This document shows positions 1 through 62,458 of a DNA stretch of 64,000 nucleotides, piece after piece. The notes under the pieces were generated by a model. It saw only the letters and a list, made by a program, of their open reading frames with translations. It was not told the DNA's origin and ran no database searches. How positions within the stretch are numbered: position 1 is the first letter of the stretch; each line of letters opens with the position of its first letter. The stretch spans positions 110,655 through 174,654 of the forward strand of contig CAVULL010000022.1 of NCBI GenBank assembly GCA_963742335.1. Reading direction: 5' to 3'. This stretch comes from an uncultured Verrucomicrobiae bacterium. GTDB taxonomy: Bacteria > Verrucomicrobiota > Verrucomicrobiia > Chthoniobacterales > JAFAMB01. A program made the translations under genes and the position numbers.

Positions 1-2927
1 TGCCCGCGCCGCGCGACAAGGCGGCGGACAGATTCCGCCCCTGACCCGGGAGATCGAATTGCGAAGTTGCGTCGCCGAACTGACCGCCTTGCTGGTACAG
101 ATGAATGAAAGCGAGGATGATTTGCTCCGGGCAGAATCGGCCACCGCTCGAGAAAGCGGCGCCAGAACAATTTCCATCGTTGTGCTTGGAGGCGGCTTTT
201 CAACTCTCGTCGTTCTGCTGGCCATCGTGATTTTGCGCCGCGACCTCGCCGAAACGAAGGCGAGCGGAGGAGGCGTTGCGCAGGCGAGAAGCTGAGCTCC
301 GAGACGCGCAACGGGTGGCCAGCGTCGGCAGCTGGGAATGGATCGTCGAAACGGGCACATTCACCTGGTCCGAGGAGCTTTACCATATCGCCGGCGGCAA
401 GCCCGAAGAAGCTCCGCCCAATTACGAGGAATTGCCACAGACGCTGACCCCGCAGAGTTGGTCGCATCTCAGAGCCGGCGATGGATCGTCGCTTTGAAAA
501 CCGGACTATCCCTACGAACTTGACCTTGAGATGATTCGTCCGGATGGAACGACCGATGGATCGCCGCGCGAGGCGAAGCGGTGCGCGATCCAGACGATCA
601 GATCACAAAGATTCGCGGCACCGTTCAAGACATCACCGAACGCAAGCGAGCCGCCGAAGAGATCCAGGATCTCTACGATCACGCCCCCTGCGGCTATGAC
701 TCGATTGACGAGAACGGTCAATCTTCCTTCGCATCAACGAGACGGAACTCTCCTGGCTCGGCTATACCCATGCCGAACTGGTCGGCAGGAAAAGGTTCCA
801 GGATCTTCTGACTGATGAAAGCAAGAGGATCTTTGAACAAGAGCTTCCCGCAGGCAAAGACAGAAGGGCACCTCAAGGATCTGGAACTTGAAATGGTTCG
901 CAAGGACGGGACGATCCTGCAGGTGTTACTGAGCTCCACGGTCGTCAAGGATAAGAACAGCGATTCATTCGTGACCCGAACAACCCTCTATGATGTTACG
1001 GAAAGGAAACAAGTCGCTGAGCAACTGAGGCTCTTTAGCGAGCGTCTGACTCTGGCCACCAGGGCTGCTTCGATCGGCGTATGGGACTGGGACTTGAGGA
1101 CGAATCAGGTTTATTGGGACGAAAAAATGTTCGAAATCTACGGATTGCCCGAGCTCGAACTCCGATGCCATACGAAGACATGGCTGCAAACCGTCCATCC
1201 GGACGACTTGGCCCGGGTGATGGAATTTCGCAAGTCGATCGTGGCGAACAAGAGGCCACGGAGCGATTGATTTCCGGATCGCCAGGCAAGAATGGCTCGC
1301 TGCGCTACATCCAGGGCGCCGAATGCGTGGTGCTCAATGAAAAGCAGGAAGTGATCCGGGTTCTGGGCGTCGAACATCGACGTCACGGAACGCAAGAAGA
1401 TGGAGCACAAGATTCAAGAGCAGGCCAATCTGCTCGGTCTCGCCAGCGACGCGATCATCGTTCGCGGACTGGACGAGGAGATCCAATACTGGAACAAGAG
1501 CGCAGAACGGCTTTATGGCTGGACGGCAGAGGAAGCCATTGGCGTTGATTTCACGAAAATTGCCGCCGAAGACCCCGCGTTGTTCGAGGCGGCAAAGGAG
1601 ATTCTGCTGGAAAAGAGGTGAATGGTCTGGAGAGGTCCGTAAAACCACCAAAGCGGGGAACGAGTCGTCATCGTGGAAAGCCGATGGACTCTTGCTGCTG
1701 GATGATCTGCGCAATCCGAGATCGATCTTGGCGATCGACACGGATATCACCGAGAAAAAACAGATGGAAGCGCTCTTTCTGCGCAACCAGCGCCTCGAAA
1801 GTATCGGTCAACTGGCCGGCGGCATCGCGCACGATCTCAACAACATTCTCGCCCCGATCTTAATGGGCGCCCAGATGCTTCGCCAAAACGCGGATGAACC
1901 GGACAGTCCCTTCATCCTCGCGCACCATCGAGACAAATGCGCAGCGCGGAGCCGAAATCGTCAAGCAAGTCGTCGCGTTTGCCAGAGGAGTCGACGGGAA
2001 ACGCGTTCTCTTGCAGGCCCGCTATGTGCTCGCGGAGATCTGCGGCATCATTCGTGAGACCTTTCCCAGATCCATCGCTCTGAAGATCGAGCAACAACAA
2101 AATCTCTGGACAATCATGGGCGACGCCACGCAACTGCATCAAATCCTGCTCAATCTGGCCGTCAACGCCCGGGACGCGATGCCTCACGGAGGAACCTTGA
2201 CCGTGGCAGCCGAAAACCTGTTGCTCGATCAGGCTGGTGCCTCACTGAGACCCGGACTCGAACCGGGGCCGCATGTGCTGTTCAAAATCTCGGACACCGG
2301 AACAGGTATAGCGCCTGATATCGCCGATAAGATCTTCGATCCCTTTTTTACCAATAAGGGACCGGACAAAGGATCGGGATTGGGCTTATCGACCGTGATG
2401 GGCATCGTGAAAAGCCACAAAGGACACGTCGAGTTCGATAGCAAAGTCGGGGCCGGAACGGAATTCCGGGTTTACCTCCCGGCTGAGCCGGGATTGCCCC
2501 GGTTGACGCCGGTCCAGGCAGGGAACGAGCGATTGAGCCTCCTCCGAAAGGGCATGGTGAACTAATTCTCATCGTCGACGATGAAGAGGCGGTACGATCA
2601 GTGACGAAGCGAATTCTTGAATCAAATGGATATCGGACTCTCCTTGCCAGCCAGGGAACCGAAGCAGTTGCGTGTTACGTAGAGAAAGGATACGAGATTA
2701 GCGTGGTCCTGACAGATTTGCATATGCCGGATATGGGCGGAGTGGAGGCCATCGCCGTGCTTCGGCAAATGAATCCCAGCGTCAAAATCATCGTCGTCAC
2801 CGGCGCCGGTTCCGCTCTTGGGGCGCCCAGCCCGGAGGAAATGGGCGTTCAAGCCTACATTAAGAAGCCTTTCGATGTGGCTCACTTGCTGGTGACGTTG
2901 AACAATGTATTGCAAGGGAAAAACTCT
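1..2927 (+). pseudogene. Hybrid PAS/PAC sensor histidine kinase with C-terminal receiver domain. The reading frame is broken about 11 times and the 5' end lies off-window.
   Basis: ORF-track pieces 59-295 (TM segment), 276-497, 581-811, 815-1270 and 1400-1621 carry PAS/PAC-type repeats ending in '..D(I/V)TERK..'. Piece 1515-2057 has the H-box 'GGIAHDLNNIL'. Piece 1894-2565 has HATPase_c boxes 'LNLAVNARDAM', 'DTGTGI' and 'GSGLGLS'. The frame of 2601 gives a receiver domain 'LILIVDDEE..TDLHMPDMGG..KKPF'. The pieces are collinear in protein order but lie in different frames. Confidence 0.8.
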
Positions 2928-3552: not shown

Positions 3553-3598
3553 CTTGCGTGGTATTCCTCGATTCTCACGACAACTTCAATCCCATCAA

Positions 3599-5446
3599 AT
3601 GAGTACACGTTTTAGCCTGGGGATTGACCTGGGCACCAGCAACAGCGCAATTGCCATCGAGGATTTCGTCAGCGGCCGGAACGATATTATCCAGATCACT
3701 CAGGTCCTCGGCCCAAACCAGATCGGCGAAAAATCAACGCTTCCGTCTGCTCTCTATATTCCGCACCCGGACGAGTTTTCAAAGGATGGGATGCGATTGC
3801 CATGGTCAAAAGGTACCGGCGAACCGATCGTTGGCCATTTTGCCCGGGATCACGGCGCACTGGTTCCTGACCGGTTGATCACTTCGGCCAAGTCGTGGCT
3901 TTCGAATTTTCACATCGATCCAAAGAAACCGGTTCTACCGTGGAAATCCGATATCAAAGAGCAGAAGCTTTCTGCGTTCGACTGTTCGCGTCGCTATCTC
4001 GAACACATGAAGGAAGGCTTCCTTTATACGGAATCCAACCAGGGCCACGCCTGGGATCTCGCAGAAGGTCAGATCGTGGTAACCGTTCCGGCTTCCTTTG
4101 ACGAAATCGCGCGGAATCTGACCGCCGCCGCCGCTGAAGAGGCCGGCTTCGGCAAGGTCGTCTTGCTCGAAGAACCGCAGGCCGCATTTTACGCCTGGAC
4201 AGCTCAAGCCGGTAGCAGTTGGCGAACCCAGGTCAGCCGCGGCGATATCGTTCTGGTCTGCGACGTTGGAGGCGGCACCGCCGATTTCAGTCTGATTGCC
4301 GTAACCGAAAAGGATGGCAATCTCGAGGTGGAACGCATCAGCGTCGGTGAGCACATCCTTCTCGGAGGCGACAACATGGATCTGGCGCTCGCTTACACAC
4401 TGCAAGCGCAATTGGAAGCCGCCGGAAAGTCGATCGATTCGTGGCAGTTTCTCGCCCTGATGCACGCCGCCGGCATCGCCAAAGTTCAAGCTTTTCACCG
4501 ACCTGTCACTTGAGCAGTGCCCGCTCGCGGTTCCCTCTCGCGGGTCGAGTTTGCTTGCCAAGACCCTTTCCACAAAACTGAGCCGCGCGACCCTCGAGGA
4601 GGTCATCCTGGACGGGCTTTTTCCCGCTGACCAAAGTGACCGATCTGCCGCAGGAATCCAGAAGCGCCGGCCTCCAGGAGTTCGGTCTCCCCTATGCGTC
4701 AGAACCGGTCGTCAGCAAGCATCTCGCCCGCTTCTTGACCCGAAGCCTGATCAATGTCAAAGCCAGCGAAACACTGACCGCGCTCGTTCGGATCACGTCC
4801 CGAGGCACTGGAAGGCGACTACCTCAAACCGACGGCCGTCCTTTTCAACGGCGGGGTTTTCAACGCGGCTCCAATCCGGAAGCGCGTGCTCGGATCTTCT
4901 CATTTCGTGGGGCAAAGGGGCTCCAGTTCGCGAACTTGCAGGATTTCAACCGGATTTGGCCGTCGCCAAAGGAGCAGCGCTATACGGTCACAATCGCGCG
5001 ACGGGACAAGGTATCCGGATCAAAGCAGGTACCGCCCGTTCGTATTACATCGGACTTGAATCTTCGGCACCGGCGATCCCGGGATTTAAGCCACCGATAA
5101 AGGCCCTTTGCGTGGTGCCGCAGGGCATGGAGGAAGGCAGCGAACTACTGATCGATGAACGAGAATTCGGACTGATCACCGGACAACCGGCTGATTTCCG
5201 CTTCTTCGCTTCCGAAGTCCGCAGCGGAGATGCGCCCGGTGCAATCATCGCAAACCCGGAACGCGAACTCGAAGAAACCGGCAAAATCGAAGTTACGTTG
5301 CCCGCAGTAGAGGGATTTCCGGAAGGTCAGGCGATCCCGGTGGTCATCAATCCGATCGTTACCGAGCTAGGAAATCTCGAGCTCTGGATGAAGCACACTG
5401 GTCAGATCGTCGTTGGAAGGTCGAATACCAGGTCCGGATGGAATAA
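3599..5446 (+). pseudogene. Atypical Hsp70-family ATPase, about 615 aa if repaired, with at least 5 frame changes
   Basis: Actin-fold ATPase motifs are present: 'FSLGIDLGTSNSAIA', 'VVTVPASFDE', 'LLEEPQAAFYAW', 'VLVCDVGGGTADFSL' and 'LLGGDNMDLALA'. The protein continues through track pieces 4551- and 4636- plus a third frame ('PTAVLFNGGVFNAAPIRKRVL'). It ends 'DRRWKVEYQVRME*' with the stop at 5444-5446. Confidence 0.75.
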
Positions 5447-9870: not shown

Positions 9871-9931
9871 TAAGCGAAGCGGCTCGCTTTGCTTCTTTCC
9901 AGGACGGGAGCAAACCGGGACGGTTCGCTTA
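9871..9931. repeat. REP-like palindromic element, copy 1 (arm A, 17-nt spacer, arm B)
   Basis: TAAGCGAAGCGGCTCGCTTTGC (9871-9892) and GCAAACCGGGACGGTTCGCTTA (9910-9931) are near-perfect inverted repeats. The same element recurs at 44168-44224 and 62401-62458, and a half copy lies at 27266-27287. Confidence 0.85.
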
Positions 9932-11714: not shown

Positions 11715-12986
11715 CGTTTCGCCTCAATAGGGTAGACCCCAACGGTTGGAAGTGGGGCCCCATCGCACGCCCAATTCGCCTACGTCGCGAATATCAACGA
11801 CAATACCGTTTCTGGCTACAGGATCACCTCGCCCACTTGGGGGCGCTCACGGCGGTGGCGGTCGGCGCTCAACCGCTCAACGTCGCGATCTCGAGAGGAT
11901 TTTCCGTGGGATGGAGCAAAAGAATTGAGTCGGGAAGGGTGAAATTCGACTTGCGCAGGTCTAAATTTTGGCTTTTTTTATACTGGCTAGAACTCACCAG
12001 TAACCATGATCAAAGAGTCCAAGCGGCTTTATTTGCCGATTTCCCCAGGTAGGCAGAGAAGCCGGAGGGTCAAAGCGTTCCGTGTGAGTTCTAGCCCTCC
12101 TTTAATTTAACGGTATGGACGGCATAGATGGACTCACGGATCTCAGTTTCTAGCTTTCGGTGAAACTGACGCAGCAAGAGGTGAACTTGCTGCGGCTGGC
12201 AGTTTCGCAGGCTGCTTCGGCGGAGGAGGCAAAGGAAGCCGGTAAGTTGTTTTTCAAAAGTTTACGAACGCGAGGGTCGAAGTACGCAGTTCGCGATCAG
12301 GATGCCCCGTAATCGCGCCGGAATGCCCAGGATTGATCGGAAGGCCGGGAAGCGCGTGGGCTAACTAACCGACCGAAAACCTCCGTTAAGGGGCTGCACA
12401 AGGCACGCTGCGATACGACCCAATAAGCACCAACAGACCGGAATCGATCGACAGCATTTCCGCGTGAGAATACGAGGACCGGAGCTGCGGATATGCCTTG
12501 TCACGGGCCAACCTCCTGGCCTTACTCCCCGCGCAATTTCCCAAAATAGGCAGAACCGGAAGTTTCCGGCCTGGTAAGGATTGGAAAGAGCGGCTGGGTA
12601 GTCGCTTCTACCAGGAAAATGCCAGGGCCAAAACTAAAAACGGAAATACCCTTTTCGGGAAATGGCGATAATAGCAGTGAACTGGGGAGGCCTGGGGTTG
12701 CCCGAGGTCGGCTAGCTCAAAAAGCATTGCATAGTGCATGCATCACTGTCATGCTCAACGTCTTTAGGACAGGCTAATCGCCTTCTCTCCTTCGCTACGA
12801 GGAGAGGCATCCAATATCCTCAGCGAAGAGTCTGAGGCGACAGCTTTCAGCCTGAAGGTCACTTCTACTCCAGTCGCATGGTCTTTTGCGCACGCCTGCA
12901 TTTTAAGTGGTCGCCGTTCGCAGCGTTTAAGGAAGGCCGGCGCGGAGTGGGCGTAACTCCAGTCTATCTCAACAAAAGAAACAGAT

Positions 12987-14087
12987 ATGGAAACAACAAC
13001 TCAAAGTGGAACGCCGGCTGGCGCCGGCAAATCTTCATTGAACCCCGACACCCTTAATCAGCTTCTTGGGCAGATGGTCAACGATCTTGGAGCAGCCGTA
13101 AATGGGGCACTCATTGTACTTGGTGACGGACTCGGAATTTACACAGCGCTTGCTGATATTGGCCCGGCGACCTCGCAGAAACTCGCCGAAAAGACCAACC
13201 TCAATGAGCGACAGCTTCGCGAATGGCTTAGTGCCCAGGCCGCTTCGGGATACATCAGCTATGACGCGGCGAGCGACTCCTTTTTTCTCACTCCTGAACA
13301 GACCGCGGTGTTTGCTGATCCGGACAGTCCAGCGGCAATGATAGGTGGATTCTACAGTGTCTCGGCCGTTTACCACGATGAGCCGCTCGTTGCGGAGAGT
13401 TTTAGGACTGGACGAGGCCTACCTTGGGGAGGGCATCACAATTGCCTTTTTTGCGGAACGGAGAGGTTTTTCAGACCCGGTTATCAGGCTAACATAAGCG
13501 AAAACTGGATTCCAGCGCTTGACGGCGTTCAGCAGAAGTTGGGCACCGGAACTCGCGTCGCAGACATCGGATGCGGTTATGGCGCTTCCACCCTCATTAT
13601 GGCGAAGGCGTTCCCGAAATCTGAATTCTATGGATTCGATTTGCATCCGGCTTCCATCGAGGCAGCGAATCACCACGCCCGGGAGCAGCATATTCCAAAT
13701 GTCCGTTTTAGCATTGCTACAGCGAAAGACTTCCCGGGCAACGACTACGGATTTGTGACGGTATTCGATGCCCTTCACGACATGGGCGATCCGGTTGGTG
13801 CAGCGTCACATGTCAAACAGTCCCTTCAACCCGATGGCACATTCATGATTGTAGAGCCTTTTGCGGGAGACTCGCTCACTGAGAACCTCAATCCGGTGGG
13901 CCGAGCGTATTACGGGTTTTCCACCATGGTGTGCACTCCTAATTCGCTCAGTCAGGAAGTTGGCCTTGCCCTTGGAGCGCAAGCCGGCGAGCGGCGCTTG
14001 AGAGACGTTCTCTCGAAGGGCGGGTTTACCCGAGTCCGCCGTGCCGCGGAAACGCCGTTCAACATGATCCTGGAAGCGCGGCCATAG
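12987..14087 (+). CDS. Class I SAM-dependent methyltransferase with an N-terminal winged-helix-like domain
   Basis: 'VADIGCGYGASTLIMAK' is SAM motif I, followed by 'FDALHDMGDP' and 'LQPDGTFMIVEP'. The 366-aa ORF is intact. Confidence 0.8.
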   Translation: METTTQSGTPAGAGKSSLNPDTLNQLLGQMVNDLGAAVNGALIVLGDGLGIYTALADIGPATSQKLAEKTNLNERQLREWLSAQAASGYISYDAASDSFFLTPEQTAVFADPDSPAAMIGGFYSVSAVYHDEPLVAESFRTGRGLPWGGHHNCLFCGTERFFRPGYQANISENWIPALDGVQQKLGTGTRVADIGCGYGASTLIMAKAFPKSEFYGFDLHPASIEAANHHAREQHIPNVRFSIATAKDFPGNDYGFVTVFDALHDMGDPVGAASHVKQSLQPDGTFMIVEPFAGDSLTENLNPVGRAYYGFSTMVCTPNSLSQEVGLALGAQAGERRLRDVLSKGGFTRVRRAAETPFNMILEARP

Positions 14088-14628
14088 GAGATCTGTCGGG
14101 AGTCGAACGTGTGCACTGGAAATCAGCGGTAGAGAGCTAAAAGCGCCTTTAGTTGAGAGTTGGCCAAGCCATTTTTGCGCCAAGGGAGTAGGGCTACGTA
14201 GCATCAAGCAGCCAAATTTTTGGAATTTAATTCTCACCGAATCCCGCAGATTCTCATCGGAGATCGCACTCGCCAAGCGGTTGGCGGGGGCCTGCCGGAG
14301 CGGTGAGGCTTATTGGGTCATATCGCAGCTCGCCTTGTGTAGCCCCGTTAAGGCGTTCCGATGCAAGCACCAAAACATCGTTGAGCTTCTCTTCTGCTAT
14401 CGAAGCCTCCCGGTTCTAGTCTGTCACCGCGTGGATCAGGATGCTATAGGTTACTCGGGGTGATCGTTGTGGACGGTGCAGGTGGCCACTTCTGCCGTTA
14501 TAGGCCGAAACTGGTAAAACCGAAACGCACCGGGGTGGCCACAGACGCGTTTTGATTCAAGTCTACTTCGTCTAATAAGACCTGGACTCTTCATGGGAGT
14601 CATCCCTGCGATCTCCCAAGTTTCGCCC

Positions 14629-27203: not shown

Positions 27204-27265
27204 AGGTAAAGGCCGAGAGGGGCGTTTGTTCAGCCGGCTTCAGCACCACCGTGCATCCGAACGGA

Positions 27266-27287
27266 GCAAACCGGGACGGTTCGCCTA
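27266..27287. repeat. Half copy (arm B only) of the REP-like palindrome
   Basis: GCAAACCGGGACGGTTCGCCTA is followed by CTTTG, the same flank as copy 1. No arm A lies upstream. Confidence 0.7.
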
Positions 27288-42266: not shown

Positions 42267-44167
42267 ATAGGGGTAGGGACGACGGATTAGGTCGCCCCTC
42301 CCTCCGAACTGGGCAGGCGGATTTCCCGCACCCAGCTCTCCAGTTGGTGGTTACTTGTCATGAAGATCGGCGTGCCGCAAGGTAGGCTTGTCTTAAGGAG
42401 TACAAGCCTACTGCGGAGAAGTAGGCGTTTGGCCAGCGCTGATTGTCTCTACCGCATCCGCGCCCGTGCTTGCCTACTCGCTTTCGTAGAATGCTTCGCA
42501 GTCTACCTCGCGTGTAGCCGTCGACGGACTCGAATACGTTGCCTTTGCTGTGTTTGAAGTATCCAAACCATCCTCGCAGGGTCCGGTTCAAGTCCTCGCA
42601 GATGGTTTTGAGGCTGCGTCCATCAGTGCGTCGGGTCTTATCTCGGATCGTGTCTTTAAGTTTACCCATGCTTTTCTTGCGTGGCCATTTCATACTCCGT
42701 TCAAAATGATAGCCTAGGAAGTCGAAGCCTCCGGCTTGACTGGCATCTACCAGTCGCGTTTTGCTCGGATGTAAGGTCAGACCGTTCTCTTCTACCCAGT
42801 GCCGGACTCGCTCTAAGGCCTCTTGGGCTTGTTCCTGGCTGCTGCACAGCACGATGAAATCATCGGCGTAGCGCACCATTTCGAAGCCCCCTTTGGCCAT
42901 CTGCCAGTCCAACCCATCTAAGTAGATATTTGATAACATTGGGCTTATCACCGCCCCTTGTGGGGTCCCTTGCTCAGTCGGTTGCCATCCTTTAGCGCTA
43001 TCCATTACTCCTGCCTGAAGCATCTGTTCTAGGAGCTTTAATACTCTTCCGTCCGCGATTTTCTCCCTGATGCGATCCATCAGTCTTTCTTGCGGAATGG
43101 TGTCAAAGTAGGATTTCAGGTCCGCATCTACCACCCAGTGGCTGCCACCCTTGAGCAGTTCGTCCACTCGGCGCAGAGCGTCCTTACATCCTTTCCCAGG
43201 TCGGAATCCATAGCTTTGGGGTGCAAAGTCGCGCTCGAAGATCGGTTCCATGACATGAAGCAGGGCTCCTTGCACAATTCGATCTCTCAGAGTCGGCACT
43301 CCTAAGGGTCGCTTTTCGTTGCTCCCCGGCTTGGGTATCCATACCCGCTTGACCGCCTGCGGTTCGTACTGGTTGACTCTTAGTTCCTGCTCCAGTTTCG
43401 CTATCGTTTGGTCTTTACGTTCTTCAATTTGTCGCGCGTTTTGATGGTCGATTCCGGCGCTTCCGCCTTTGGCGACTACCTTCTCGAGCGAGCGTCCAAG
43501 ATTCCTTGGACTCCAGACTTTGTCTATCAGTCTGAACCATTTTCCTCCTTCGATCCCCGTTTCCAGGGTTGCCAACATGCGCTCCGTCCAGACCTCAGCT
43601 TCCACCCATGCCCACCGGGCACGGATCTCTCCGTCTTGTGGAGCCCTCTGGGGCACTGCCGACGGTGTTTGTTCCTGTGGTCTGTCTTTCACGCTTCCAC
43701 CTTCCTGCCTCCCTTGGCTCCACGGGCATTACCCCGCTTCTGCGCTACTATGGAGGCTCTGTCACCTTTCGGGTACGGTTCTTCGGACCTTCTGCAGACC
43801 ATGAACGCCGTTCCTTTCCCGAATCGTGATCCCTGATTCATGTCGCTCCAACTTCCGACCATTCTGTCTCCACCCACCCCATGCACTCCTGGCCCTACGC
43901 TCACTGTCTCGCCGCAGGTCAGGTCGCGAAGTTGCCGTTCTCCCTTTCCGGATCGGCTTCCGTTCTGGGCTTCGCCTTCACTTAGCAGGCTCGCCAATGC
44001 ATCAGGCCGTATCGAGTTCATCATTTTCTTAATTATGGACTGGTCGTTCGCTTCCGGTTGCTCCCCACCCCGCCTCTCGGCGACGCAGTTTCCTTCAGCT
44101 ACGGACAGCCAGTGTTCTGTCCGATGGGGACTTCCACCCCACTGTTGGTGCGCACTTTCAGGCGCAC
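42267..44167 (-). mobile_element. Group II intron with RT/maturase ORF (1901 nt)
   Basis: The reverse complement begins GTGCGCC (G corresponds to 44167). The RT ORF lies in domain IV. Domain V is GAGCTGGGTGCGGGAAATCCGCCTGCCCAGTTC (42306-42338). A domain VI hairpin has a bulged A and ends ..CCCCTAT at 42267. The rejoined flanks recreate the uninterrupted repeat flank seen in other copies. Confidence 0.85.
42358..43692 (-). CDS. Group II intron reverse transcriptase/maturase, without an endonuclease domain
   Basis: RT domain 5 motif 'VRYADDFIVLC' is present, with RT0-7 order and a maturase X domain. The protein is 444 aa and has no C-terminal HNH/En extension. Confidence 0.9.
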   Translation of the reverse strand: MKDRPQEQTPSAVPQRAPQDGEIRARWAWVEAEVWTERMLATLETGIEGGKWFRLIDKVWSPRNLGRSLEKVVAKGGSAGIDHQNARQIEERKDQTIAKLEQELRVNQYEPQAVKRVWIPKPGSNEKRPLGVPTLRDRIVQGALLHVMEPIFERDFAPQSYGFRPGKGCKDALRRVDELLKGGSHWVVDADLKSYFDTIPQERLMDRIREKIADGRVLKLLEQMLQAGVMDSAKGWQPTEQGTPQGAVISPMLSNIYLDGLDWQMAKGGFEMVRYADDFIVLCSSQEQAQEALERVRHWVEENGLTLHPSKTRLVDASQAGGFDFLGYHFERSMKWPRKKSMGKLKDTIRDKTRRTDGRSLKTICEDLNRTLRGWFGYFKHSKGNVFESVDGYTRGRLRSILRKRVGKHGRGCGRDNQRWPNAYFSAVGLYSLRQAYLAARRSS

Positions 44168-44224
44168 TAAGCGAACCGTCCCGGTTTGCCAGTGATGAGG
44201 AGGCAAAGCGGGACGCTTCGCCTA
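44168..44224. repeat. REP-like palindromic element, inverted orientation, flanked on both sides by group II intron 5' ends
   Basis: TAAGCGAACCGTCCCGGTTTGC (44168-89), a 13-nt spacer, then GCAAAGCGGGACGCTTCGCCTA (44203-24). Confidence 0.85.
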
Positions 44225-44935
44225 GTGTGCCCGACATGGGTTCAATGTAGTCAAATGAAAGGAAGTGACCGGAAGCCGTGACAGCAACCGTAGCGAAAAG
44301 CAAGGCGCAGGGCCGCGAGGCCCTGAGCTGAAAGAAGCGATAAGCAAAGACACGATCGTAGGAACACGAACGGGCAGAGAGGCCGCTTGCGGGCGAAGAG
44401 TGTGCTAGGAGACACGAAATCCAACCGTCACCGAAAGACGCGAGAGGTAGAGCCCGACGACACGGGTCGAAACATTGAACACCTTACTCGGGGAGATCTG
44501 CCGGGCGAGAGTCCGCGCAGAAGTCAGCAGAGGCCGTAGTAGTGAAGAAAGCCGGTGAAAGCCGGAAGGAGCGAAGGGCCAAAGAACCAAGAGACAGACC
44601 AGCTGAAAGAACTCTGGAAAAGCGGAGCGAGAAGTTTCCCGAAACAGTCTAGGAGCGAGCCACGAGCACACTTCCGAGACAGCTCAGCGCGGGGAGAGTA
44701 AAGCAGTGGATCTGCTTGAAGGAACCGAGCGAGGGGAAGCAAGCCCGCACCAGACGAACTAAAGTGCAGAGGTGCTGAATGAAATGACCATGGCCGAAGT
44801 GCTATCGGCTTCGTCATACCATGGCAGGACGCAGTGGGCTACACCCATTGCCGGGTTCAACCGCCGGATGCGGAAAACCGCATGTCCGGTGGTGTGGGAG
44901 GGTCACGGCGCGCAATCACCGTGACCCGACCCGAT
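44225..44935 (+). mobile_element. ORF-less group II intron-like RNA element (711 nt)
   Basis: The element starts GTGTGCC. A 34-nt domain V-like hairpin ACCGCCGGATGCGGAAAACCGCATGTCCGGTGGT lies at 44860-44893. It is followed by a domain VI-like hairpin with a bulged A, ending ..CCCGAT at 44935. GA-rich, stem-loop-rich sequence lies upstream. Only short antisense ORFs are present. Confidence 0.65.
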
Positions 44936-45088
44936 CCGCTTACTGGTAAACGCCAGTACCGCAATCAATACGATTTTGGAACGAGAGCGTGGGAGGCACG
45001 CCGATCCCCGAGAAGAAAGGGCAGCTATTCGAAATTTTGCCGACCGTTCTGAACTTCCGAGTCGGTCTTCGGTCGGGGCCAGGTCAAT

Positions 45089-50634: not shown

Positions 50635-50703
50635 AAAGGCGACTCGGGAGGGATCATAATCCTGGCTTCAACCGGATGAAGCCTGAACTGCTAGTGGTCA
50701 ATC

Positions 50704-51001
50704 TAGTGTCCTGTCCCCGAAATACGAGGTATTTTGCCGGAGGTCAGTTGGCTGTTTTTCAAGGCGCGAGCGAAGCGCCCATATCTGAGTCATACGGGTC
50801 GATCCGCCGCGGCGGAGGAAAAACAGCCAACTGGTCCCGGCCCAGAGGGTTGCGATGAAAATGGGCCGGCGGCTGCGTTGCTCGTCGGTCACGTATCGAT
50901 TCAGATATGCTCCCTCCTACCGCCAGTCCGGCTCGGACCGCCTTGCCGGCGGCCCATTTTGATCGCAACAAAATACCTCGTATTTCGGGGACAGGACACT
51001 A
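50704..51001. mobile_element. MITE (298 bp) with perfect 32-bp terminal inverted repeats
   Basis: TAGTGTCCTGTCCCCGAAATACGAGGTATTTT (50704-35) and its exact reverse complement (50970-51001). If the outer TA is treated as a duplication, the ends are GTGTCC.. flanked by TA/TA. An internal 15-bp inverted repeat CAGTTGGCTGTTTTT/AAAAACAGCCAACTG is present. No transposase is encoded. Confidence 0.85.
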
Positions 51002-51080
51002 AATTAGCGAAGGCGTCCCGGCGGTGTCCCGATGATTAGAGCGTGGTTGATGGAAGACCGAGGGCTTCAGGAGACGCTTC

Positions 51081-54689: not shown

Positions 54690-54798
54690 GCATTTTATCC
54701 TTAACTAGCGCTTCCGTCCGGCCCTCCTCTTCTGATCTCCGCGCTCGGCACGAACAACACTGAAAGCATATCTAGCGCGATTCGAGGTCTGTTGCCAT

Positions 54799-55218
54799 GG
54801 CGTTCGGCGTTCGCGTTCGCGTTCGGCGTTCAGCGTTCGGCGTCAGCGTTCAGCGTTCGGCGTTCAGCGTTCGGCGTTCACGGCGTTCGGCGTCACGTTC
54901 GGCGTTCGGCGTTCAGCGTTCAGCGTTCGGCGTTCGCGTTCAGCGTCGCGCACAGGGCGCAGTCAGGACACGGTAACACTTATGGGTCAGGGCATCGGTA
55001 ACACTGCTACTGTTGTAGTTGATGGTTTGATTGTGTCATCTGCGAAGTGATATCGGGCAACCAATTGGCGCCCAGACTTATCCATAATCGCTGTAAAAGC
55101 ATAGGAATACTGCCCGCGATTATGATTACGCGCACCATCCCCGGCTTGCTCCGCCGAACGGCGAACGCCAACTGCGCCCAGCAAACGGTGAACGCCGAAC
55201 GGTGAACGGTGAACGGTG
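54799..55218. repeat. Inverted heptamer-array element: ~150-bp GCGTTC(G/A) array, ~200-bp unique core, ~68-bp complementary array
   Basis: 54799-54947 holds about 20 tandem units of GCGTTCG/GCGTTCA with occasional 6-mers. 55151-55218 contains GAACGG(T/C)-type units, which is the reverse-complement sense. The core contains the direct repeat GTCAGGACACGGTAACACT / GTCAGGGCATCGGTAACACT. Confidence 0.85.
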
Positions 55219-62400: not shown

Positions 62401-62458
62401 TAAGCGAAGCGTCCCGCTTTGCCTCTGTAAATAAGGAGCAAACCCGACGGTTCGCACA
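62401..62458. repeat. REP-like palindromic element, copy 4 (arm B carries a 1-nt deletion)
   Basis: TAAGCGAAGCGTCCCGCTTTGC (62401-22), a 15-nt spacer, then GCAAACCCGACGGTTCGCACA (62438-58). Confidence 0.8.

Follow-up and report, generated by a model that had tools for sequence, protein, structure and literature searches.

How two group II introns of different lineages came to lie head-to-head on opposite strands, with their 5' ends facing each other across one short palindrome, is the question raised by a locus in contig CAVULL010000022.1 (assembly GCA_963742335.1) of an uncultured Verrucomicrobiae bacterium. The window, a stretch of 64,000 nt of this contig, was analysed as a whole; coordinates are window positions, and L-numbers (L002, L006, L017 and so on) denote fetched relative or sister loci. 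The locus comprises (i) a reverse transcriptase (RT)-encoding group II intron of 1901 nt on the minus strand (42267-44167), with the ends 5' GUGCG and CCCCUAU 3', hereafter the minus intron; (ii) a group IIC intron of 711 nt on the plus strand (44225-44935), lacking an open reading frame (ORF) and with the ends 5' GUGUG and CCCGAU 3', hereafter the plus intron; and (iii) between both 5' ends, a 57-bp palindrome (44168-44224) built as an inverted doublet of repetitive extragenic palindromic (REP)-like units, a so-called REPIN-like arrangement, which stands uninterrupted in sister contigs. Most probably, the locus records two independent retromobility events, in which stem-loop-homing introns of the IIC type entered equivalent positions of both inverted REP-like units.

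Both elements pass the Rfam Intron_gpII model (RF00029), which covers domains V and VI and has a gathering score of 40, with matches at 42267-42340 on the minus strand (51.7 bits) and at 44859-44935 on the plus strand (44.5 bits), and both 5' ends fit GUGYG. In this covariance-model scan of both strands the matches end exactly at the 3' boundaries proposed in an earlier note on this DNA, which had recognized two group II introns in head-to-head orientation and had taken the 711-nt element for a group II ribozyme. The latter call is confirmed, the element also matching the group-II-D1D4-3 model at 44309-44485 on the plus strand (89.4 bits). The two introns were likewise rightly assigned to different lineages: blastn comparison of one with the other, domain IV included, returns chance-level 9-12-mers only.

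Two syntenic sister metagenome contigs, L006 and L007, reached via a neighbouring protein, carry both intron sites empty. Between the LysR gene and the gene for a 138-aa protein lie 653 bp of intergenic DNA in these contigs vs 3258 bp in the window, and the window without 42267-44167 and 44225-44935 aligns to them base-for-base over both junctions, reading ...GGCAGAG^TAAG(C/T)GAACCG...CGCCTA^CCGCTTAC... (^ marking the insertion point), with 99.3% identity over the surrounding 11.4 kb. This alignment makes both boundaries exact, without target duplication, and identifies both introns as strain-level insertion polymorphisms; it also confirms that each 5' end abuts one arm of the palindrome and that the boundary of the minus intron had been called correctly from its rejoined flanks. 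Both introns are thus recent insertions. Presence and absence by themselves give no polarity, and the sister contigs might have lost both introns by precise deletion, the window strain having gained none; such a history would, however, require two deletions, each exact to the base and independent of the other, in contigs 99.3% identical to the window, for families that occupy many different sites, and excision from DNA is not known for group II introns. A precise double loss in the sister contigs is therefore very unlikely.

The palindrome has the anatomy of REP singlets and inverted REP doublets. Its arms recur in the window, with 5 matches at no more than 3 mismatches vs 0 expected by chance, and the REP-like loci of the window, four in number (three doublets and one singlet), are short imperfect palindromes in extragenic positions. 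Arm matching places the unoccupied ones at (i) 9871-9931, a doublet of the same family in opposite orientation, with both TTA^C sites empty; (ii) 27265-27287, a single arm reading CGCCTA^CTTTG; and (iii) 62401-62456, a further doublet of the same family. The uninterrupted in-window copies CGCTTA-CTTTG and CGCCTA-CTTTG, to which the boundary call had appealed, were both found. Unoccupied arms have the sequence ...CGC(T/C)TA^C, and TA^C is where both introns are inserted, the repeat heads on the strand opposite the intron being GTAA or GTAG; related repeat families are plentiful in the fetched loci.

Each arm of the palindrome forms an 8-bp hairpin of its own, GCGAAGCG-TCC-CGCTTTGC or GCGAACCG-TCC-CGGTTTGC, and the two arm types differ by a compensatory change from G-C to C-G inside this hairpin. 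In the doublets at 44168-44224, 9871-9931 and 62401-62456, type 1 is always paired with type 2, which places C.C and G.G mismatches in the long palindrome. The compensation within the arm hairpin, together with the mismatches in the long stem, suggests selection on the small hairpins and not on the long stem. Read on the strand of each intron, the 5' exon of the minus intron ends in the small hairpin GCAAACCG-GGA-CGGTTCGC followed by TTA^ (44171-44189, minus strand), and that of the plus intron in GCAAAGCG-GGA-CGCTTCGC (44203-44221, plus strand), the last base of which is overlapped by intron-binding site 1 (IBS1), CCTA (44221-44224).

Related copies disclose the same arrangement at other sites. 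The minus family is represented by relatives whose RTs are 81-91% identical to that of the window; the plus family was reached with a pseudo-protein query, translated from stop-free frames of the complementary strand, which yielded 36 loci from JGI metagenomes and 19 from GTDB. The first 50 distinct sites tabulated comprise both window introns, four RT-type relatives and 44 plus-family copies, and at every one of them (50/50) a stem ends 1-6 nt upstream of the insertion. A hairpin score of at least 6 is reached at 52% of the sites vs 1.2% of 2000 control positions, and a 30-nt folding energy of -5 kcal/mol or lower at 72% vs 7% of controls. The hairpin is present at 44/44 distinct plus-family sites tabulated, and all copies found in this family follow a hairpin. 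Beyond the first tabulation, 15 further RT-type sites obey the same rule, and about 19 of 20 distinct RT-type sites of the minus family lie directly after a short hairpin and (C/G)YTA.

The hairpin families used as targets are several and mutually unrelated. Those followed by the minus family include GGTCGTTTC-GGA-GAAACGACC-CTA^, GGCGGCTG-AGC-CAGCCGCC-CTA^, GCAAAGCG-GGA-CGCTTCGC-CTA^, ACAGGCT-GGA-AGCCTAT-GCTA^ and GGTCCGCTC-GGA-GATCGGACC-CTA^. Relatives of the minus intron, 1901-1905 nt in length, share its ends, and the near-identical introns L002, L003 and L004 differ in sequence at positions -5 to -12, a variability that argues for the absence of an IBS2; in the plus family, the sequence upstream of IBS1 likewise varies among hairpin families. 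Class IIC targeting is defined by a stem-loop, an IBS1 of 3-4 bp and an IBS3 of 1 bp, with no IBS2 (PMC1702495, PMC10190682, PMC4424553), and IIC introns are reported to insert after terminators or "other inverted repeats" (PMC1702495). With a hairpin upstream at all 50 tabulated sites, a short IBS1 and no IBS2, the stem-loop homing of IIC type put forward in the earlier note is borne out. The same note had regarded the palindrome hairpin as the homing target, and this part needs revision: the recognized structure is most likely the short REP hairpin of each arm together with the 4-nt IBS1. The 57-bp palindrome was rejected as the primary recognized stem, given that relatives adjoin isolated short hairpins and that IBS1 would be paired within the long stem.

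The exon-binding sites (EBS) covary with these targets. EBS1, located from the covariance-model alignments, occupies a GC-NNNN loop in both families: UAAG in the minus intron (43981-43984, minus strand; D1D4-3 alignment), pairing with IBS1 CUUA, and UAGG in the plus intron (44406-44409, plus strand), pairing with IBS1 CCUA at 44221-44224. Four of four Watson-Crick pairs form at 42 of 49 sites, and none of 5000 shuffles reaches the observed mean. Five types of IBS1/EBS1 pair occur (CCUA/UAGG, CUUA/UAAG, ACCA/UGGU, UCCA/UGGA and GCUA/UAGC), and in the minus family UAAG is seen with CUUA, UAGG with CCUA, and UAGU with GCUA. An unbiased column scan of the plus family returned one position behaving as EBS3, complementary to the first base of the 3' exon in 36/36 members (G-C in 28, U-A in 6, A-U in 2); in the window it is the G at 44450 (plus strand, intron nt 226), pairing with the IBS3 C at 44936. 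It follows from the EBS1-IBS1 matches in the window that each intron occupies the arm matching its own EBS1. The loop AAUUAAGAAA was also considered as EBS1 of the minus intron and discarded, the covariance-model alignment placing it in the epsilon-prime region while the GC-UAAG loop covaries with the 5' exon.

The following course of events explains these data best. An 8-bp hairpin closed by a GGA triloop forms in each REP unit on the strand of that unit, with YTA^C next to it on the 3' side. The intron ribonucleoprotein would recognize this hairpin, the 4-nt IBS1, which is CUUA for the minus and CCUA for the plus intron, and the 1-nt IBS3 (C), reverse-splicing immediately 3' of IBS1 by the replication-primed route described in the IIC literature. 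As a doublet offers one site per strand, the 5' ends of both introns come to lie opposite one another, with the palindrome between them. An intact endonuclease-less RT/maturase presumably makes the minus intron autonomous. The plus intron descends from a class C ancestor of about 1.89 kb by loss of 1181 nt of the RT ORF; its ribozyme stayed intact, as did the remainder of domain IV, with the part in which other IIC introns have their RT-binding DIVa hairpin. The RT mobilizing this intron in trans would be encoded elsewhere and is most probably the cognate one of class C.

Occupation of both arms is regarded as expected from a symmetric two-site target in a many-copy genome, with no separate mechanism. 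A matching TA^C is present on about seven arms of the window; the two occupied ones lie on one doublet, an outcome with a chance of about 14% by our own estimate. A second head-to-head pair of the same two families is found in L017 (112-1606), where an ORF-less plus-family intron (112-819, minus strand) and an ORF-deleted minus-family intron of 753 nt (854-1606) flank a 34-nt spacer (820-853); this spacer forms a hairpin and is identical to the last 34 nt, that is domain VI, of the 753-nt intron. One may ask whether the second arm becomes a favoured site once the first is occupied, or owes this to the structure of the doublet, for example through easier hairpin extrusion or pausing of the replication fork. 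The L017 pair around its single hairpin would speak for such a hotspot, as would the fact that this doublet alone among the matching arms is occupied, and on both sides; but a same-doublet outcome for two insertions among about seven arms is not rare at the estimated chance, most related copies occupy sites without a second intron, and the EBS1 match of each arm suffices to explain the choice. A hotspot is accordingly improbable, and double occupancy by two ordinary insertions is preferred.

The minus intron encodes an RT/maturase of 444 aa (42358-43692, minus strand) with a YADD motif, RVT_1 and GIIM domains and a TIGR04416 score of 381 bits, and no endonuclease domain; the YADD motif and the missing endonuclease had been described from the first reading. 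The identical protein occurs on 7 contigs in the protein cluster table. Rfam alignment likewise upholds domain V at 42306-42338 (minus strand, 33 nt, AGC triad), which carries two compensatory pair changes relative to L002, and domain VI at 42267-42305 (minus strand), with a bulged A 7 nt before the 3' end. The distal stem of domain V comprises 4 bp, shortened as in IIC introns, domain V at 33 nt is one position shorter than the RF00029 consensus, and domains I-III amount to about 455 nt. Among solved structures, the closest relatives of the RT are IIC RTs (214 and 209 bits), ahead of a IIB RT (160 bits), and targeting is IIC-like, with a short EBS1-IBS1 pairing, no IBS2 and an upstream stem-loop at varied sites. 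The minus intron is thus best described, from its predicted features, as having IIC-type targeting, a ribozyme atypical for IIC and an RT distant from the solved IIC RTs; Toro and Martinez-Abarca (2013) and Zimmerly and Semper (2015) allow no class assignment to be derived for it.

The plus intron is, by its predicted fold, a canonical IIC ribozyme. Its domain I core (the D1D4-3 region, 44309-44485, plus strand) includes the epsilon-prime motif AGGAA at 44360-44364, within the stretch CGUAGGAACACGAAC at 44357-44371. Domain V (44861-44892, plus strand, 32 nt) reads CCGCCGGAUGCGG-AAAA-CCGC-AU-GUCCGGUGG, with the CGC triad (44862-44864) containing a G.U pair, a 4-bp distal stem, a 2-nt AU bulge and a 4-nt loop; the earlier description of a 34-nt hairpin holds for triad, bulge and loop, and reaches that length only with a flanking A-U pair. 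Domain VI and the 3' end (44893-44935, plus strand) comprise a 3-bp basal helix, a bulged A and an antepenultimate G. The IIC hallmarks found are the CGC triad, the short distal stem, AGGAA and an abbreviated domain I (domains I-III measuring about 357 nt), as well as a 4-bp EBS1-IBS1 pairing, a single-pair EBS3-IBS3, no EBS2/IBS2 and an upstream stem-loop. The endonuclease-less RT of class C is absent, the 711-nt copy containing no ORF, while its ORF-containing parents encode a class C RT; the plus intron is on these grounds a IIC ribozyme derived from a class C retroelement and not autonomous.

Comparison with these parents highlights how the ORF was lost. Positions 1-580 and 582-711 of the plus intron are 93-97% identical to introns of 1885-1892 nt (L010, L013, L015 and L058-L060), which hold 1181 extra nt between both conserved blocks, namely an RT ORF of about 412 aa beginning MTMDEVLSRENLN. 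The parental RT scores 401 bits with the GsI-IIC RT and 342 with the E. rectale IIC RT, as against 112-132 with IIB and IIA RTs. At the domain IV deletion junction (44784-44841, plus strand), comparison with L010, L013 and L058 reveals the remnant ATGACCATGGCCGAAGTGCTA / TC / GGCTTCGTCATACCATGGCAGGACGCAGTGGGC, which keeps about 7 N-terminal and about 11 C-terminal codons (MTMAEVL and GFVIPWQDAVG). The earlier statement that the element has no credible ORF stands, refined by an ORF history with terminal codon remnants of a class C RT; when the 711-nt element was searched by tblastn with the neighbour's RT, nothing significant emerged (best E = 0.15), and only comparison with the true parent discloses these remnants. 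The lost ORF had been the terminal loop of the domain IV stem, which was thereby cut back to a neat hairpin. In domains V and VI the plus intron does not differ from its ORF-containing parents, and one compensatory domain V pair change occurs in the family.

The junction GAAGTGCTA-NN-GGCTTC is common to the window, L021, L030, L032, L044 and L046, with L018 further deleted at this point, and copies sharing the breakpoint include a Ca. Sulfotelmatobacter metagenome-assembled genome (MAG) and 12 loci of a single MAG. ORF-less copies occupy at least 25 distinct sites, 12 of them in one MAG, and one breakpoint shared by copies at many sites identifies a non-autonomous intron mobilized in trans. 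The MAG with twelve copies, MFD01213.bin.2.98, carries them (704-705 nt each) at twelve loci, L046-L057, after the target hairpins GTAAGGCG-GGA-CGCCTTAC-CTA, GCAAGCCG-GGA-CGGCTGGC-CTA and (G)ACAGGCT-GGA-AGCCTAT-CCTA. Independent ORF deletions were observed in L042 (1744-2508, 765 nt) and L023 (32-1614, 1583 nt; coordinates of both on the reverse complement), on a more distant branch of the same IIC family that is about 80% identical, targets GCGGC-GNA-GCCGC-AACCA and has the EBS1 UGGU.

Several observations weigh against the account developed so far. Read on the strand of the minus intron, its arm hairpin has 5 bp and 2 bp on either side of an A.C mismatch, and its stability is no more than moderate (dG -4.0); the splicing and RT activity of both introns are predictions from the ribozyme and RT sequences. 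The minus intron departs from canonical IIC ribozymes in that domain V begins GAGC, giving the triad AGC instead of CGC, and apparently also in domain I, where (i) its full-model alignment to D1D4-3 scores 19.8 bits vs a gathering score of 32 and (ii) the position of the epsilon-prime motif reads AGAAA, not AGGAA. As for the plus intron, no second RT exists within the 64-kb window, cognate parents being seen in other MAGs and metagenomes only, and the pseudo-protein scan recovered no ORF-containing family copy in MFD01213.bin.2.98, with its 12 ORF-less copies.

The departures in triad, epsilon-prime motif and D1D4-3 score could place the minus intron outside class C/IIC altogether, in a separate endonuclease-less lineage sharing stem-loop targeting or converging on it. 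The longer domains I-III fit this placement, and so does the RT, which separates IIC from IIB relatives by 214 vs 160 bits where a bona fide IIC parent RT gives 401 vs 112. Against it, the closest solved RTs are still those of IIC introns, the distal stem of domain V is shortened, EBS1 lies in the homologous GC-NNNN loop, and the targeting rule is one that a review attributes only to class C (PMC4424553). A separate lineage is thus unlikely, if a serious alternative, and the reading of the minus intron as an atypical intron with IIC-type targeting is retained.

A related issue is which RT serves the plus intron. The earlier note had raised trans-mobilization of the ORF-less partner next to an RT-encoding intron; mobilization in trans is supported by the deletion origin and the multi-site spread, and the adjoining RT is the less likely helper, being 33-35% identical to the parental class C RT. 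The ORF history and the 93-97% identity of the parents, set beside this low identity of the neighbour, instead make a cognate class C RT encoded elsewhere the helper most probably. The alternative holds that the RT of the minus intron acts as a cross-family driver, splicing and mobilizing the plus intron. The two families do stand head-to-head twice, in the window and in L017, and follow the same target rule on the same REP families; the twelve-copy MAG without a recovered ORF-containing copy leaves room for such a driver, and intron-encoded proteins (IEPs) of relaxed specificity that act as drivers are documented in T. elongatus (PMC2882425). Yet beyond the divergence of the two RTs, the RNAs share no detectable sequence similarity, even in domain IV, nearly identical ORF-containing parents exist in related MAGs and metagenomes, and known cross-mobilization takes place between closely related introns. 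Little credence is hence given to a cross-family driver, and the cognate RT remains the favoured helper. A broader proposal, in which the minus family is an unclassified endonuclease-less lineage (about 35% identical to class C RTs) with IIC-style recognition and possibly a driver for ORF-less class C introns where a genome has no cognate RT, appears doubtful; if true, stem-loop targeting would not be exclusive to class C.

Compared with known IIC introns such as B.h.I1, O.i.I1 and E.r.I1, the window introns share an endonuclease-less RT, a small ribozyme, an upstream stem-loop, an intergenic location, a 4-nt EBS1-IBS1 and a 1-nt EBS3-IBS3 without IBS2, and the plus intron adds the CGC triad, the short domain V, AGGAA and a parent RT at 401 bits with the GsI-IIC RT. 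On the other hand, REP-like hairpins of 8 bp with a GGA loop and no U/T tract take the place of terminators or attC sites as targets, the sites essentially lack a spacer, with IBS1 overlapping the last stem base, and the minus intron has AGC in place of CGC and a much more distant RT. The introns specialized on attC sites (the S.ma.I2 lineage; PMC4424553) resemble this locus as a IIC lineage devoted to one repeated family of imperfect DNA hairpins, and differ in that the window locus has no integron context and a different hairpin family. In Pseudomonas putida KT2440, 2 of 9 group II intron copies were scored as REP-associated (Tobes and Pareja 2006, PMC1525189); there too the landing sites are short extragenic imperfect palindromes, often in inverted doublets, whereas the association described here is systematic, involves two families and is exact in position (hairpin-YTA^C, or G^TAR at the REP head on the other strand).

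The closest precedent for the ORF-less element is provided by the TeI3 introns of Thermosynechococcus elongatus, which are mobilized by IEPs in trans (Mohr, Ghanem and Lambowitz 2010, PMC2882425). Both cases comprise a single ancestral ORF deletion with the same breakpoints and N- and C-terminal remnants, many sites with good EBS/IBS pairing, EBS diversification and the need for an RT in trans. The TeI3 introns, however, are of the IIB/CL type, depend on endonuclease-containing IEPs, have long sequence-specific targets and reside in one cyanobacterium, while the lineage found here is IIC, targets hairpins and occurs in several MAGs and soil metagenomes.

All components of the locus are of known kinds, and the novelty lies at the level of examples, including (i) a non-autonomous lineage of IIC type spread over several MAGs, (ii) two lineages using REP-like hairpins systematically and with exact position, and (iii) an atypical lineage with an AGC triad that shows IIC behaviour. 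The locus is a well-documented natural case of IIC target choice and leaves the general picture of group II intron biology unchanged. Two lineages follow one rule (hairpin, 4-nt IBS1 and 1-nt IBS3), each on the arm matching its own EBS1, and the roughly 65 natural target sites, with the EBS/IBS covariation they show, are ready material for putting the structural model of DNA recognition by IIC introns to the test. Reviews call bacterial ORF-less introns rare and mostly immobile; this IIC derivative, reduced to the ribozyme, has come to occupy many sites.

Some target sites coincide with a described motif, Acido-Lenti-1 (RF01687). In L037, an ORF-containing plus-family intron splits a copy at 3566-3591 (minus strand) right after model position 23; the split site reads hairpin-CUA^UCCUGAAUCGC..., and EBS1 (UAGC) and EBS3 (A) of the intron match the motif. 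An intact copy (40.8 bits) lies 290 nt from the split one, at 3860-3904, and Acido-Lenti-1 elements also serve as IIC insertion sites in L002 (2442-2491) and L060 (3848-3902). The association of this motif with group II introns is not known to have been explained. IIC insertion inside Acido-Lenti-1 could explain this association, and the sites suggest that Acido-Lenti-1 may be a REP-like DNA repeat.

Other repeats were observed beside REP-like sequences or elsewhere in the window. A miniature inverted-repeat transposable element (MITE)-like element of 306 bp (50700-51005), with 37-nt inverted repeats that are 97% complementary and a nested 25-nt inverted repeat, is directly abutted by the REP-like sequence AGCGAAGGCGTCCCG. 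Some 20 tandem heptamers, GCGTTCG or GCGTTCA, occupy 54796-54946 and 55152-55218, with the inverted partner array about 200 bp downstream, and arrays of the CGTTCG type likewise stand beside REP hairpins in L005 (5' flank), L008 and L068. In L053, a thiamine pyrophosphate (TPP) riboswitch (2695-2798, 61.6 bits) lies about 90 nt from an ORF-less copy, probably incidentally. Finally, 59-nt inverted repeats with 78% complementarity (12383-12441 and 14295-14353) enclose a segment of 1.85 kb that encodes a methyltransferase-like ORF of 366 aa (12987-14087).

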